Below are positions 7,420-13,831 of a stretch of 64,000 bases of DNA, piece by piece (the first letter of the stretch is position 1; each line of letters starts with the position of its first letter). The stretch covers positions 864,001-928,000 of the forward strand of contig CAVWUU010000004.1 of assembly GCA_963758295.1 (NCBI GenBank), read 5' to 3'. This DNA is from Candidatus Eremiobacteria bacterium (lineage in GTDB: Bacteria; Vulcanimicrobiota; Vulcanimicrobiia; Vulcanimicrobiales; Vulcanimicrobiaceae). The notes under the pieces were generated by a model. The model was not told the DNA's origin. It did not search any database and was given only the letters and a program-made list of their open reading frames with translations. The position numbers were made by a program, and so were the translations under genes.

Positions 7420-8913
7420 ATGACGGTGGCCGAGGTTGGCGAAGCCCTTCGAGCGCTTCGCTACCGGCGGGGCGACTTCGCGAACGAAGCCGCGAGGCTG
7501 CGGTTCATCGCCGGGGTTCACGGCGTGCTTCGCCCGGGAACGGTTTCCCGGTTGATCTTCACCGCCACGGTGGTCGAGCGCGTCCCTTACAAGATGATCG
7601 CCCGCGAACTCGCCATTTCGCTGCGGCAATTCTTCCGCTTGCGCAACCAGATGATCCAGGAAATTCGGTCGGGCTTGAGCGCGCAGCGGCTGCATGTCGG
7701 CGAAACGATGAACACCGACCGTCTCCAGCTGGAGATCGCGCGCCGCGCCCTCGAACACGGACACACTGAAACGGCGGTGAGTACGCTAAACAGCGTCATG
7801 AATCGCTCGCTGCGGGTGCAGGATTTGGTGGAAGCGCTCGTGCTGCAGGCCCGTGCCTCATGCGATGGCGGCACACTTGCCGGCACGCAGTCGTCCCTGG
7901 AAGAGGCATGCCGCATCGCTTCGCGCTTCGACTCCGAACAGCGCGTCGAATGGCAAAGAGACGTCGCGCTCACGCGAGCGTATGCGTTCTACCGCGACGG
8001 CGCGTACGACGCGGCCATGGAGGCTTCGCAACACGCGCTTCCGCTTCACGAAGTCGTTCCTACGGCGGACCCCTACGTCGCCCGCAAGCTCGCGCGTCAC
8101 GCACTCTTTCTTGCGCTTCAGCATGAAGAGGCCGGCTCCCCGGAACAGGCGTTGGAGTATTTGCGCGCGGCGCATGACGTCCTAACATCGCTGGAGCGTC
8201 CGCCGGGACCGGAGCTCGCGCAAGTTTACGTGCATCGTGCGTTCGTTCGGGCGGGCATGCCAACCGACGCTACGGCGGCGCCGAACGATGCGGCGGAAGC
8301 CGTTCGCATTGCGGAGTGGCATGGGTTGACGGCGGAGCTGGTATGGGCAAATCTGGCGCTCGCAATGTCGACGTACGGGTCTAACCCGCAAGAAGGCGCT
8401 TCCGTTTGGGCTTCGCGTGCCATGCAACTTGGTGGGGAACACTTATCCGGCGATCCGCTTGCACGCACCCTTTTCATCGGGTCGCGATTCGAATGCGCTG
8501 CGGGCCGTCCGGACGACGCGCTCGTCCATGTCTTACGAGCCAAACCGCACGTCCGGGGAAACAATCTGCTTCAGGCCATCTTCCACCTGGCGCTGGCGCG
8601 AGCATATCAAGCCGGCGGCGATCACGAACACAGCATCGACGCCGCAACACAGGCTATCGGAATGATGGAAGGCCGCAGCCATTCGCACTACATCGGGCTG
8701 GCCTATTTGAAGCGAGGCTCTTCCCGCGCCATGCGAAAGTTGCCGGATGCGCGCGACGACGTGGAATCGGCGATTCACTACCTGGAACGCGGCGCGCCGC
8801 TCAGCGATCGGATGGAAGCCTTGACGCTGTCCGCGTCCGTAACGCGCAATCGCGTTCACCGGCGCGAGGCCGAGGAGTTACGCCACTTACTGGCCGCTGC
8901 GTCCGGCCAATAA
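7420..8913 (+). CDS. Putative regulator: N-terminal HTH plus TPR-like helical repeats
   Basis: YKMIARELAISLRQFFRLR resembles a sigma-4/LuxR-like HTH and is followed by Ala/Leu-rich helical repeats. SD GAGGGG upstream. Confidence 0.7.
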   Translation: MTVAEVGEALRALRYRRGDFANEAARLRFIAGVHGVLRPGTVSRLIFTATVVERVPYKMIARELAISLRQFFRLRNQMIQEIRSGLSAQRLHVGETMNTDRLQLEIARRALEHGHTETAVSTLNSVMNRSLRVQDLVEALVLQARASCDGGTLAGTQSSLEEACRIASRFDSEQRVEWQRDVALTRAYAFYRDGAYDAAMEASQHALPLHEVVPTADPYVARKLARHALFLALQHEEAGSPEQALEYLRAAHDVLTSLERPPGPELAQVYVHRAFVRAGMPTDATAAPNDAAEAVRIAEWHGLTAELVWANLALAMSTYGSNPQEGASVWASRAMQLGGEHLSGDPLARTLFIGSRFECAAGRPDDALVHVLRAKPHVRGNNLLQAIFHLALARAYQAGGDHEHSIDAATQAIGMMEGRSHSHYIGLAYLKRGSSRAMRKLPDARDDVESAIHYLERGAPLSDRMEALTLSASVTRNRVHRREAEELRHLLAAASGQ

Positions 8914-10194
8914 CGCGACGCGATCGTCCGGCAATCGTACGCCGGCGGAAGCCAGCTCTTTGCCCAGCAGCTCGAAACCGCGTTGCCCATGCAGCGGCTT
9001 CAAGAACGGATCCACGTGCAAAAACGCAAGGTCCGGTTCCCGTTCGGCAAGGGCTGACGAAAGCACGCGCAGCGCCTCGTTCGCAAGGCCCATCGCGGCG
9101 AAAATTCCGGCCTGCAAGGTGCGCGAGCGCACGCGGCCGAGCGCGGCGCGGGAATTCACGGCGTCGCCGGCGACTGCATCGGCAACGCCTTGCGCCGCTT
9201 CCAGCCGGTCGCAATACGCGCCGCCGTTAAAACGGGTGCGCAGGGCACGCACTTCTTCGGCCGCGCCCAGCAGTGCCAGACACGTCGCTAAGAATGCGGC
9301 CGCGGGTTCGAACGACTCGTCGATTTGAAGGACGTCTTCCAAGCGCGCGCGCGCCTTTTGGCGGTCGCCGGCGTAAAAATCGACGGCACCGTACATCGTC
9401 AACAGTTCGAGTGAAACAGGATCGAGCTGAACGGCGCGCTCCACTTCTTGACGTGCCTGTTCCGTCGCGGAAGACGACGCATAGGTAAGACCCTTTGCGA
9501 CAAGCGCCCGGGGCCCATGGGGCGCGTAGAAAAGCGAACGATCGTAGTACTCGCGAGCTCGTTGCGCGTCATATCCGTAGAGAAACGCGACGTCGCCCAG
9601 CGAACGGTATGCCTCGGCATGCTCCGGATCGAGCGTCAACGCTTTGGTTGCCGCCTGAGCCGCGCGGGGAAATTCCGATGAGGCTGCGGATTCATAACTA
9701 ACCGCAAGCGCAACGCGGGCTTCCGCGATGCCGGCGTAGGCGTCGGCGAGGGACGGATCTTCGGAAACGGCGCGTTGAAACGACTCCAGCGCTTCGCGGA
9801 ACGATTTCGGGCAGCGTTTCGAAAGCAAGAACTTTCCACGCGCGTACCATCGCCAAGCCGGGCTCCTGAGCAAGTTCACCGAGGAAAAAATTTCGACCGG
9901 TACGGAAACGCGGTAGCCCGAACCGCTTATGGTAAGCAGCACCGTCAAGGCCGGCGTATGATGCGCAAACGCCTGGCGCAGCAGAAAGATATGCTGGGTA
10001 AGGTTATTTTCATGAACCGGATCGTCCGGCCAAAGCGCATGCAGCAACTGCTCGCGCGTTACGATGCCTCCGGGACGGTCCAGGAGATACTGCAAAACTT
10101 GCAACGATTTCGGCTGGAGTTTGACGCGTGTCTCACCGCAGGTCAAATCGCGAGTTTGCGGATTAAAGGCGTACGGACCGAAATGGTAGATCAT
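8887..10194 (-). CDS. OmpR/CadC-type winged-helix regulator with TPR repeats
   Basis: YHFGPYAFN, VTREQLLHALW, NLTQHIFLLRQAF and TISGSGYR form a Trans_reg_C-like domain. TPR-like repeats follow (ALTLDPEHAEAY, AVQLDP). Confidence 0.85.
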   Translation of the reverse strand: MIYHFGPYAFNPQTRDLTCGETRVKLQPKSLQVLQYLLDRPGGIVTREQLLHALWPDDPVHENNLTQHIFLLRQAFAHHTPALTVLLTISGSGYRVSVPVEIFSSVNLLRSPAWRWYARGKFLLSKRCPKSFREALESFQRAVSEDPSLADAYAGIAEARVALAVSYESAASSEFPRAAQAATKALTLDPEHAEAYRSLGDVAFLYGYDAQRAREYYDRSLFYAPHGPRALVAKGLTYASSSATEQARQEVERAVQLDPVSLELLTMYGAVDFYAGDRQKARARLEDVLQIDESFEPAAAFLATCLALLGAAEEVRALRTRFNGGAYCDRLEAAQGVADAVAGDAVNSRAALGRVRSRTLQAGIFAAMGLANEALRVLSSALAEREPDLAFLHVDPFLKPLHGQRGFELLGKELASAGVRLPDDRVALLAGRSGQ

Positions 10195-10442: not shown

Positions 10443-10591
10443 CGTTGCCTCGAAAGCCGCCGCTTTTCGTCTCCCGCACGAGCCTATAGGCGATTTGCAC
10501 CCGCGAAAAGTCGCATAGTGTATAACCAAGCGCTCGGAGTGGGTAAGTCGGAAAATCTTGTGGATAGGGTGTGAATCCTCAAAATGGTGTA

Positions 10592-10620
10592 TTGAAGCGC
10601 CGTTTTTCATCTGTTACGAT
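10592..10620 (+). promoter_or_regulatory. Strong sigma70-type promoter with extended -10
   Basis: TTGAAG (10592-10597), 17 nt, TACGAT (10615-10620) preceded by TG-n. Confidence 0.7.
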
Positions 10621-10626
10621 GCGGTC

Positions 10627-10816
10627 ACTTCGTCAACGAAGTGCGACGCACGTATCGATCGCAACCGCAAACGCCGTGACAAGTTGCGCTGGCAGCTTTC
10701 CGAAACGCCGGTTGAACCGCCGGATCAACGCAGGTAGGGTCTCCCACCCGGGGCCAAACCGGCGAGTCCGGTGAGCGAATACGTCAAAACCCGCCGGCTT
10801 ACCCCGGCGGGTTTTT
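10627..10816 (+). ncRNA. Candidate structured ncRNA 2 (~190 nt), family unassigned
   Basis: Bounded by a good promoter and a perfect terminator. Nested long-range pairings ACGTAT/ATACGT, TCGC/GCGA, ACCG/CGGT and CGCCGGTT/AACCGGCG. No credible ORF. Confidence 0.6.
10786..10816 (+). terminator. Intrinsic (possibly bidirectional) terminator
   Basis: Perfect 12-bp stem AAAACCCGCCGG / CCGGCGGGTTTT with a 6-nt loop and a T5 run. Confidence 0.85.
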
Positions 10817-11129: not shown

Positions 11130-12110
11130 TTATGTGTATTTTTTCACTATGTCGGCGACGAGGACGCTGATGCGTGTGCGGATTTCTGTTGGGTGCACGA
11201 TTTCGGCTTGGGCGCCCCAGCCGAGGACCCAGCGTACGAGTTCGTCGACGTCGCCAACTTGGTAGTCGATTTCGGCTGAACCGTCGGTATTGCGGGTGAT
11301 TTGGCGTTCTGCTACCACGCGTGCGGCGATTGCGGCTTTTGAGACGCGGGGCGCGAACTTTACGCGCACGCTCGTGGTGTCGGCACCGTGCATTACGCCG
11401 CTGATCGATGCGGCTGCGTAGGCTTCGACGTCGAAGTCTGCGGGTCTGGTGAAGGTGCGGGCAAGGAGTTCCGGTGAGGACACGTTGTCGACGGCGAACA
11501 CCCGTTTATCGCGGCGCGAGTGATCGTAAGCAACGCAGTAGATGCGTCCCGAACTCACGATGAAACCGTAGGGGTCCACGGTGCGGGCGCTTTGTTTTCC
11601 CTCTTTGTCGGAATAGCTGAATTGCACGCTGCGCGACGTACGTTCCGCCGCCGCGAAAACCGAAAAAGCCTTTTCGCCGGCTTCGTCCATGCGAATTTCC
11701 GCAAGCCGGAATGCCATGGGCGACGGCGCTTCGGCGCGCGCTTTGGCCGAACGTCCCGACGAGCCTAGGAGTTTGTCGGTAATCTCGTCGATCGACTGCC
11801 CGATCGCGCCGCCGATCGATGCACCGAACGAACGAAGCGCGACGAGTCCGAAAAGCTCGCCGCCGCTGAGGTCCAAACGTTTGAGACTGTAACCTTCGGC
11901 GAACTTGTACGTCGCCGTGATGCGGTCGAAAAACCACGGAAAGCCCGCCTCGGATAGCACGGCGAGATAGCGGCGCAAGCTACGCGTGCTCGGCCGTTTT
12001 CCGCCTTCGGCGATACGGTCTTTCAAATCCTCGAAAGAATGGCGGCCTTCGTCGATGGCATTGAGCAGCCGGACGAGCAGGACGATCTTCGGTTCTGTGG
12101 TGCGTTCTAT
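11130..12110 (-). CDS. HTH-WYL-WCX transcriptional regulator (PafB/PafC/DriD-like); start uncertain
   Basis: N-terminal HTH (STRSLRRYLAVLSEAGFP), WYL-type RTVDPYGF..IYCVAYDHSRRDKRVFAVDNV and C-terminal WVLGWGAQAEIVHP. Start proposed at ATA 12110 (see findings). Confidence 0.9.
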   Translation of the reverse strand: MERTTEPKIVLLVRLLNAIDEGRHSFEDLKDRIAEGGKRPSTRSLRRYLAVLSEAGFPWFFDRITATYKFAEGYSLKRLDLSGGELFGLVALRSFGASIGGAIGQSIDEITDKLLGSSGRSAKARAEAPSPMAFRLAEIRMDEAGEKAFSVFAAAERTSRSVQFSYSDKEGKQSARTVDPYGFIVSSGRIYCVAYDHSRRDKRVFAVDNVSSPELLARTFTRPADFDVEAYAAASISGVMHGADTTSVRVKFAPRVSKAAIAARVVAERQITRNTDGSAEIDYQVGDVDELVRWVLGWGAQAEIVHPTEIRTRISVLVADIVKKYT

Positions 12111-13831
12111 GCGCGTGGTCTCCCGGGCGACGGTTCTATCGTTGGTATCGGACTTGGCGACGCCGACGGTGAGGCGGACGAGGGCACGGACGGCACCGCG
12201 ATGGGCGACGGCGGCGGCTGCGGTTTCGGGAAGCACCCGTCGGGCGCCGAAATCGGCGGCGGTGTAGGCTGTGGCGGCGTCTGCGTGATTCCTACCTCCA
12301 GCGGATAGTTCGACCCGCCGTCCGTCATCGTTTGAAGGTTCAACCGATACGTTTGATTCGGCTGCAACGTGTACGCGCTCACCTCATATGGTTGCGGAAC
12401 GCGAACGCATCCCATGTCGACCAGCGAATTGCCTAGCAAGAAGCTCGAACGAACGACGCCGCCGATCGGCCGTTCGTAGAGAAAGACCGTTGCCGGCGCC
12501 GACGTTGGATTAGCGAGCGAGAAGCCGATATTCCAAAGCACGCCGTAGTCACCGTAGTCGTGGCCCGGCGAGTTCGCCGCAACATTCGGCGGCGTGGGCT
12601 CGCGATCGCCGTAGACGAACTTTGCGTCCGGACCGCCGACGGCATAGGAAACATTCGCGCTGCCGTAATTGGCTAGCGAGAAGATGCCCGTGCGATGATG
12701 GCCGTCGTCGGGCAGTTGCGGACGGCTCAGCAACGTCCGCGGATCGATGCCGGGCGAAACGGCTACAACGGTAACATTCACCGGTCCGCCGGCCAGAACG
12801 CGCAATCCGACGGTGCCGGCGACGCCCTGCCGGTACTGCATCGGCAAGTCGTGCAAGACGTATGGAGTTGAATCGAGATCGACGATCGTTCCTTGATTGC
12901 GGGGCTGGAACAGCAAGAAGTTTTTGCTCGTAGCGTGGCCTACGCTCATTACGTCGATGTTCGGCCCGGCCGTCGAATCGATGATTTGCACTGACGACGG
13001 ATCCTGCGATTGGGACGATAGGATGACCGCCACGCGGCGCGCTTGCGGGCCGTTGTCGTGATAAAAATAAAGCCGCACCGGCCGCGCGGCATCGAACGTT
13101 CCGCGGTAAAGCACGCCGTCGGCGTTTACGCGTTCGGGATCGTCGTCGTAAAAAAGCAACGAAGGCAGAAACGTTCCCGCATCGACGTTTTGCACCGTAA
13201 CCGTCGTACTGTCGTTCACGTCGAGATACGTGTCGCCGCCGGCGATTTGCACCGGGACGGTAAACTGCGTCTGCGCACCCGGCACAAGCGGCGAAGGTGC
13301 CGGCGTCACGGGCGCGATGGCGACTTGCGCGCCCGGCTGGCTCAGCGTGAGACGTGCGACGAGCGAGGCGACCTGCTGTGCGAGCCACGCGGGATCGACT
13401 GGGGATCCGGTGACTTTCAGCGTCGCTGTTTTTTCAACGGTGCCGGCCGCAAACGCGACGCGCACCGGTACGTCGATCCGGCTGGCGCCGCTGATAACGT
13501 GAATCGTATCGTTGCCGGTTGCTTGCGTCGCCGTGACCGTCACCGTCAAAGCGCTTTGGTCGACGGCGAGGATTACGAGCTTCCGGTCGGTCGTCGCCTG
13601 AAGCGGCGCGTTTGCGCCGGTGACGGTGATAATTTGCTGCTGCGCGGGAGAAAGAGAGACGGACGCCGGTTGAACGCCGAGCGTTCCGGAGGCAGGCGTG
13701 AACGCCGGCGATGGTGATGTTTGCGGGAACGGCGATGCGGCCGGTGACGCCGGCGCGGCGGGCGTGACAAGCACCGGCGGCGGTGGAGGCGGGGTCACCT
13801 GGGCTACGACGGCGACAATCGCGGCAAACAT
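12107..13831 (-). CDS. Exported beta-rich protein with Pro-rich termini
   Basis: Signal-like N-terminus, Pro/Ser-rich linkers and an Ig-like Thr/Val-rich region. LFYDDDPERVNADGVLY and DYGDYGVLWNI recall DUF3370-like proteins (tentative). Confidence 0.75.
   Translation of the reverse strand: MFAAIVAVVAQVTPPPPPPVLVTPAAPASPAASPFPQTSPSPAFTPASGTLGVQPASVSLSPAQQQIITVTGANAPLQATTDRKLVILAVDQSALTVTVTATQATGNDTIHVISGASRIDVPVRVAFAAGTVEKTATLKVTGSPVDPAWLAQQVASLVARLTLSQPGAQVAIAPVTPAPSPLVPGAQTQFTVPVQIAGGDTYLDVNDSTTVTVQNVDAGTFLPSLLFYDDDPERVNADGVLYRGTFDAARPVRLYFYHDNGPQARRVAVILSSQSQDPSSVQIIDSTAGPNIDVMSVGHATSKNFLLFQPRNQGTIVDLDSTPYVLHDLPMQYRQGVAGTVGLRVLAGGPVNVTVVAVSPGIDPRTLLSRPQLPDDGHHRTGIFSLANYGSANVSYAVGGPDAKFVYGDREPTPPNVAANSPGHDYGDYGVLWNIGFSLANPTSAPATVFLYERPIGGVVRSSFLLGNSLVDMGCVRVPQPYEVSAYTLQPNQTYRLNLQTMTDGGSNYPLEVGITQTPPQPTPPPISAPDGCFPKPQPPPSPIAVPSVPSSASPSASPSPIPTIEPSPGRPRA

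Follow-up and report, generated by a model that had tools for sequence, protein, structure and literature searches.

What occupies positions 10592 to 10816 of the window, a 64,000-nt stretch of DNA from a Candidatus Eremiobacteria bacterium, and what might its product do? An earlier note, made from the letters alone, had proposed a stand-alone, undescribed structured RNA at this locus. That much of the proposal is supported: the noncoding RNA (ncRNA) gene spans window positions 10627-10816 on the plus strand, is about 190 nt long, has its own sigma70-type promoter and its own terminator, both conserved, shows covariation, and matches no Rfam family.

The promoter (10592-10620, plus strand) was found where the note had placed it and is kept in homologues. 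It consists of the -35 element TTGAAG (10592-10597), a 17-nt spacer, and the extended -10 element TG-n-TACGAT (10612-10620), and this spacing predicts a transcription start near 10627. The extended -10 is kept in 46 of 47 homologue matches (2 of the 47 are duplicates), and the TTG of the -35 and the TA...T of the -10 are invariant in 38/38 diverse copies. The intrinsic terminator (10786-10816, plus strand) has the 12-bp stem that had been claimed (10786-10797 with 10804-10815) and a U-tail to 10816; a terminator-like hairpin is present in 136 of the 138 parsed copies. There is an A-run 5′ of the stem, so that the convergent gene is probably served by the same hairpin, as judged from its letters. 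A generic promoter and terminator scan listed neither element, which we attribute to its thresholds: the promoter scores 8 of 12 matches (cut-off, 9), and A/U pairs absorb the tail. The fold of the 190-nt stretch has a z score of -3.33, and 1 of 200 shuffles was equally good. We regard it as very likely that a real ncRNA is transcribed here.

The RNA leads no gene: as the note had claimed, no plus-strand gene follows, and the next gene encodes a convergent WYL-domain regulator. A riboswitch or other cis-acting leader was rejected on this ground, together with the absence of a same-strand WYL gene (0/120 copies) and the differing neighbours of paralogues. A small protein was also judged unlikely: the copy described here contains no ATG, a closed ATG frame is missing from 37 of 136 copies, and lengths are spread evenly over the three frames, although a closed frame of at least 10 codons does occur in 84 of the 136.

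The RNA is widespread in its order. BLAST placed it in 10 of 60 related genomes (E up to 1.2e-6), a first covariance model matched 57 of 80 others from the family, and inspection by eye of the syntenic site recovered far more divergent copies; models R1 and R2 miss true divergent copies, and sensitivity for distant homologues is limited throughout. Of 150 genomes in the order, 136 matched a model of the promoter and P1/P2 core, usually with two copies each and never with more than four; the matches include 4 of 4 genomes from the order's second family. The 14 genomes of 150 without a match imply that the RNA is dispensable somewhere or has diverged past the model's reach. Among unpublished genomes, G026 (locus L010) supplied one promoter-model seed and a single copy to the parsed set of 138. 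The 136 positives include G024 and G195, the negatives of family f3 include G048 and G059, and G004, G013, G033, and G034 enter denominators only; the conclusions are independent of all of them.

Second copies lie at unrelated loci, beside nadA and an OPT transporter gene, HIT/yqeY, or mutS, with upstream boxes (described below), promoter, and terminator kept, and three cassettes stand in tandem in each of the genomes G029, G104, and G141. Comparison of the copies shows boxes, promoter, RNA, and terminator moving, by their sequences, as one cassette. The third tandem cassette of G029 (L290) is truncated or decaying: its boxes, promoter, P1, and P2 are kept, but the tail strand of the pseudoknot and the second arm are missing. 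At L120 (G035:C6:325730-327510), the cassette and part of the WYL gene occur twice, inverted and identical, near a contig end, possibly as an assembly artefact.

Wider searches gave little. Model R1 under strict filters had no match among 69 genomes from 17 other families or among 2 from family f2. Within f3, model R2 gave only matches with E above 0.02, and model R3 gave weak matches in 3 of 13 genomes, which by eye were box clusters beside coding sequence or noise; R3 then matched 0 of 8 further f3 genomes and 1 of 29 genomes of other families, the latter a short box-only match. Two other phyla had matches in 1 of 40 and 2 of 40 genomes, all of them origin-like arrays. A box-plus-promoter pattern matched 14 times in 11 of 39 genomes, and the 11 matches inspected held no RNA cassette. 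There were no matches to a tight pattern in viral contigs and none by BLAST in phages and plasmids. In metagenomes, a pattern search found 23 contigs, all at least 1.9 kb long and thus uninformative on transcript ends, and model R2 confirmed 23/23 (one is cut off). In family f18, of another class of the phylum, L278:1501-1700 and L279:1501-1700 hold a DnaA-box-like array, a promoter, and a short conserved stretch that looks structured, with no R2 or R3 match.

The fold was followed through 138 distinct copies, parsed from 198 raw matches (10 were skipped for a short match or no promoter parse, and the rest were duplicates); P1 was found in 136, P2 in 135, and the terminator in 136, and the median length is 198 nt (range, 127-236). 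The automatic parser placed helices wrongly in a number of divergent copies, among them L298, L299, L339, L341, L069, and L071. P1 is the 5′ hairpin of the earlier note, found at 10627-10642 (plus strand, as are all elements of the RNA), and has at least 4 bp in 136 of the 138, with compensatory changes in divergent copies. It is followed by the P2 hairpin (10643-10662; 10643-10646 with 10659-10662), whose loop carries the 5′ strand of a pseudoknot (10650-10655). P2 is 99.4% paired, and its fourth pair is A-U in 25 sequences, G-C in 12, G-U in 2, and U-A in 1 (n=41). The P3/P4 arm (10663-10713) is variable in length and has its base at 10663-10667 with 10709-10713 and hairpin P4 at 10681-10698; double changes occur in 3 of 4 base pairs at its foot and in 8 of 8 inner pairs. 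This arm is short in L127, L039, and L284 and nearly absent in some copies. The P5/P6 arm (10718-10773) has internal loops and an apical hairpin at 10738-10755; P5 has double changes in 4 of 4 pairs, and the arm is absent in some copies, L292 among them as judged by eye. The pseudoknot 3′ strand (10779-10784) pairs with 10650-10655, with double changes at 6 of 6 pairs. Since either arm can be short or absent, P1, P2, and the pseudoknot form the invariant unit of the RNA, as read from the aligned copies.

The pseudoknot is supported by loop and tail sequences that are wholly different yet complementary in L072, L343, L348, L292, and L347, and by eye in L298 and L299. The cognate loop-tail pairing score exceeded those of 2000 of 2000 permutations, although only 5 of 61 loops had their cognate tail as the best or joint-best match. 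The earlier note had proposed collecting homologues and testing covariation; when this was done, double changes exceeded those in shuffled data. A first 47-pair model, counted on 42 sequences (the short variants L010 and L039 and two duplicates were left out) and still including an inner closing stem rejected later, had 94.5% of cells paired and 26 double-change pairs versus 10.1 in shuffles (0/500 as good). The pseudoknot model had double changes in 33 of 44 pairs versus 17.7 in shuffles (0/500; 41 sequences); both models were counted on MAFFT rather than structure-fitted alignments, and the shuffle and permutation controls ignore relatedness.

These results change the architecture first suggested. 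The proposed apical stem (10706-10713 with 10757-10764) failed: among 42 sequences it pairs in only a few (52.4% of cells), and 433 of 500 shuffles did equally well. The large 5′ internal segment, taken for a bubble, turned out to be a covarying arm with its base at 10663-10667/10709-10713. The proposed closing stem stood in part: 10650-10655/10779-10784 is general, as a pseudoknot, while the inner part can form in only 44 of 61 sequences, against at least 4 bp of the competing P2 helix in 60 of 61. In a single sequence, the minimum-energy fold has a 10-bp interrupted closing stem, with a computed -82.7 kcal/mol versus -79.5 kcal/mol plus about -4 kcal/mol for the pseudoknot model. In the main lineage, both forms are thus possible at similar computed energy, and a switch between them is conceivable.

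Those energies bear on whether this could be a second 6S- or Ms1-type RNA, an open-promoter mimic that binds RNA polymerase, which we consider distinctly unlikely. The RNA has the size (about 190 nt) and the own strong promoter and terminator of such RNAs, its minimum-energy fold has the closing stem that is possible in 44/61 sequences, and the main lineage may have a rod-like alternative conformer; the end hairpins recall Ms1, and protein binding is proposed here too. 6S and Ms1 are described as long hairpins with a central single-stranded bubble, Ms1 with short end hairpins (PMC4191392). Here, in contrast, there is a pseudoknot core and no such rod; two covarying arms fill the junction and leave 4 nt unpaired, neither RF00013 nor RF02566 matches, and a separate 6S-type gene occupies its own syntenic locus. 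The 6S-like label of the earlier note was dropped for these reasons. As formal candidates, 6S RNA was rejected because RF00013 has no match at the locus at E up to 10 and because its architecture of closing stem, central bubble, and terminal stem is replaced by the pseudoknot and covarying arms, the apical stem having failed; Ms1 RNA was rejected on its differing fold and on 0 matches of RF02566 in the source genome at E up to 1.

The probable 6S RNA gene of the source genome is at G000:C1:214746-214933 (L031:1501-1688, plus strand); with 31.9 bits against a cut-off of 46.4, it is the genome's only RF00013 match. It adjoins an AP-endonuclease-like gene and rpiB and is syntenic with matches in 4 of 5 other genomes, one of which is above the cut-off.

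Other known families were no better candidates. An Rfam scan, also proposed in the note, gave no family match at the locus: its 12 weak matches (E values of 0.098 to 7.6) were all far under their cut-offs, the window had none at the gathering score, and there was none in 5 homologue loci (at E up to 0.5) or in 20 further loci. The note had seen no SRP, RNase P, or tmRNA signature, and the corresponding models (RF00169, RF00010, and RF00023) score above their cut-offs elsewhere in the genome and not here. A raiA-motif RNA was rejected on the lack of an Rfam match, the single pseudoknot, and the WYL/hutH context, and a bacterial Y RNA because Ro60 (TROVE, PF05731) occurs in 0 of 5 RNA-bearing genomes, the control being positive in 2 of 14. 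For a TnpB guide scaffold (reRNA), PF07282 was found in 1 of 5 genomes, which is not the source genome; for TnpB and IscB scaffolds alike (reRNA and omega RNA), there is no free guide segment, the terminator abutting the pseudoknot and the RNA starting at P1. HDV-like ribozymes are nested double pseudoknots with P3/L3 inside the P1 loop; here, in the modelled fold, the pseudoknot strand is separated from the P2 3′ strand by only 2-4 nt, and Rfam gave no match.

A clue to control lies upstream. The earlier description of the gene overlooked an array at 10517-10578 that is part of the gene. All its 9-mers are DnaA-box-like and on the plus strand: A0 (10517-10525, at about -110; one mismatch to the DnaA consensus), A (10538-10546, about -89), B (10559-10567, about -69), and the weaker C (10570-10578, about -58), 11 bp after B. 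In 128 upstream regions, with positions counted from start sites parsed to within about 1 nt, a box lies at -88 to -90 in 118, at -68 to -70 in 112, and at -57 to -59 in 98, with a minor peak of A0 type, present in only some copies, at -109 to -112. There are 413 same-strand and 24 opposite-strand box matches, with peaks 20-21 and 11 bp apart, and a perfect consensus box in 72 of the 128. Roughly 10 bp are missing near box C in 3 of 38 aligned copies, which brings box B one helical turn closer. The array belongs to the RNA gene, because paralogues in unrelated neighbourhoods retain it.

The box at -89 has the pattern TGTG-N-ATAA with a free fifth position, which is the reverse complement of the consensus TTATNCACA (PMC4447404). 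That fifth position is degenerate in box A (A in 18, C in 12, G in 6, and T in 2; n=38), as in TTATNCACA, and boxes B and C depart from the consensus at positions 7-9. Conserved boxes matching TTATNCACA at a promoter, the sequence mark of DnaA-regulated promoters, are thus present, and we think that the RNA gene is probably controlled by DnaA.

Direct repeats 11 bp apart could also be read by a regulator of the OmpR type. The RNA could be as described and its array be read by such a direct-repeat binder, shared with dnaA and minC, for which the 11-bp step from B to C and their departures at positions 7-9 would speak. Box A, however, is the DnaA pattern down to its free fifth position, the perfect box occurs in 72/128 arrays, and the promoter model cross-reacts with origin-like DnaA arrays, all of which makes an OmpR-type reader improbable.

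Control by DnaA, the reading that we prefer, finds echoes elsewhere in the genome. The box B 9-mer recurs upstream of dnaA in the same genome, with a near-identical B-C pair there. The promoter model gave seven weak matches in seven genomes before one gene, which in the two checked is minC followed by minD. The source genome's own minC has a perfect box, although its matrix score, 16.2, lies within the null range (maximum, 18.9). When the source genome was scanned with the matrix, the array of the RNA gene, on which the matrix had been trained, was alone in rising above the null, and the dnaA site was absent from the top-scoring rows. The array before minC-minD (G000:C1, about 64330-64430, minus strand, and loci L360-L366) was seen in both families of the order and is a candidate link from DnaA to division, as far as its letters go. 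Three further DnaA-box-like sites and a TACGAT -10 element precede a membrane-protein-like frame at G000:C4:336282-336337.

The promoter model also matches dense tandem DnaA-box arrays that resemble replication origins in other phyla. An origin at the RNA locus was rejected: dnaA lies on a different contig in the source genome, and three relatives with single-contig assemblies have it at a distance of 0.7-1.6 Mb. On contig C1, GC skew changes sign, from negative to positive, close to dnaA; at the RNA locus it is uninformative. The array might still be the working part as DNA, a site of DnaA titration or recharging whose occupancy is tuned by transcription, with the RNA secondary. The loci datA and DARS and the box clusters of Bacillus subtilis are such sites, and the array here is better conserved in sequence than the RNA and multiplied with each copy. 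Against this, a pseudoknot that covaries across wholly different sequences needs selection on the RNA, transcription heads away from the boxes, and there are only 3-4 boxes, phased to the promoter. We hold this possibility to be highly improbable.

The neighbours of the gene offer one more candidate partner. The WYL/WCX (PafB/C-like) regulator gene (11130-12236, minus strand; Pfam WYL and WCX) is the usual convergent neighbour; among 120 copies in loci of at least 2 kb, 97 have it on the opposite strand and none on the same strand, in a sample biased by the many loci fetched via the WYL gene. On the other flank, a winged-helix/TPR gene is oriented away from the RNA gene. Could the RNA be a ligand or partner of the WYL regulator in a response to nucleic-acid damage? 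WYL domains bind single-stranded nucleic acid, the two genes stand tail to tail in 97/120 copies, and neither the RNA nor the WYL gene was found in family f3. Yet the WYL orthologue is still there in 6 of the 7 RNA-negative genomes tested, for which reason the adjacency is probably ancestral gene order, and paralogues and the copy of G018 lie far from the WYL gene; a WYL partnership thus appears remote.

Two further features of this stretch are recorded here. Two large convergent genes for TPR-containing, regulator-like proteins are inserted between the hutH operon and the RNA gene (window 7420-10194), and the one nearer to the RNA gene was seen only in the loci of the two closest relatives. 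A 37-nt inverted repeat (97%; window 10842-10878/11010-11046) lies between the terminator and the WYL stop, its two arms enclosing 131 nt; the genome has it only once, and the closest relatives lack it.

From these data, the following sequence of events can be proposed. The housekeeping polymerase would transcribe from about 10627, activated by DnaA bound in phase upstream of the -35. Activation rather than repression is suggested by our analysis of box placement, because the boxes lie upstream of the -35 and in phase, as at B. subtilis sda. The RNA would then fold into the compact pseudoknot core carrying two exchangeable arms, which covariation supports, and would act by shape, holding a protein of replication, division, or transcription in proportion to copy number. 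Action by shape on a protein is proposed because the loops are unconserved, the pseudoknot strands change together, and no conserved pairing with the dnaA or minC leaders was found; multiplied cassettes would be expected where dose matters. We lean towards such a protein-binding mode, which we infer with less assurance than control by DnaA. The whole reading, of a real transcribed ncRNA that is controlled by DnaA and binds a protein, has about as much chance of being right as of being wrong.

A first guess at the partner would be DnaA or a factor acting on DnaA, closing a feedback loop. The grounds for this guess are weak: a search of 5 genomes gave no YabA, and no Hda-like second DnaA matched in the source genome, which leaves room for another DnaA regulator. 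A feedback regulator of initiation, in which DnaA drives the RNA and the RNA binds DnaA or an initiation factor in an Hda- or YabA-like job, is a speculative and rather unlikely form of the model.

The RNA could instead pair with mRNAs. CcnA of Caulobacter crescentus is described as about 180 nt long, encoded inside the origin, presumably activated by CtrA, with weak DnaA boxes within the gene, and as pairing through a CCCC loop with GGGG motifs of mRNAs (PMC8959179). A similar trans-acting cell-cycle sRNA would use a C-rich loop, and the apical loop is indeed YYCACC in the source genome and several genera, with the upstream boxes linking the gene to the cell cycle. Tetraloops, however, replace this loop in many copies, the whole arm is absent in some, and complementarity of the RNA showed no conserved run with the leaders of dnaA (5 genomes) and minC (7 genomes), in a test of the longest complementary run that covered these two leaders only. 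A pairing sRNA is accordingly unlikely. Like CcnA, the present RNA is an ncRNA of similar size putatively tied, here by its boxes, to replication control; unlike ccnA, its gene lies a long way from dnaA, carries the boxes upstream, and encodes no conserved seed.

CcnA is the nearest in role, and raiA-motif RNA is the nearest in kind. The raiA-motif RNA (ModT) is likewise about 200 nt long, stand-alone, pseudoknotted, supported by covariation, and not a riboswitch. It is described as having six to eight helices, two pseudoknots, and 51 highly conserved positions, as adjoining raiA/comFC in Bacillota and Actinomycetota, and as being of unknown biochemical role (PMC10861870). The RNA described here differs in its one pseudoknot, few invariant bases, multiple copies, DnaA-box array, and lack of an Rfam match. 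For the promoter, the closest parallel is B. subtilis sda, which lies outside the origin and is activated by DnaA through boxes upstream (PMC4447404). Both are non-origin promoters with upstream DnaA boxes; in contrast to sda, the product here is a structured RNA and not a protein, and the link to DnaA comes from sequence only.

The gene represents an uncatalogued RNA family with an unusual regulatory signature, whose mechanism we infer. A literature search found no paper on this RNA family, and the main texts of PMC11109978 and bioRxiv 10.64898/2026.10.21.760802 name neither the phylum nor DnaA; the latter, a 2026 preprint on large-scale clustering of intergenic regions, may hold the family in its database or supplements. 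Large structured bacterial RNAs seldom carry a clue to their controller, and here the cassette itself points to DnaA. The same boxes stand before the cell-division operon minCD, and the cassette has been duplicated up to four times per genome while its compact pseudoknot core was retained. The host family has a cultured member, Vulcanimicrobium alpinum (PMC9758169), so these claims can be approached by experiment. If control by DnaA is true, an abundant soil lineage would use RNA as a further layer in coupling replication to division.
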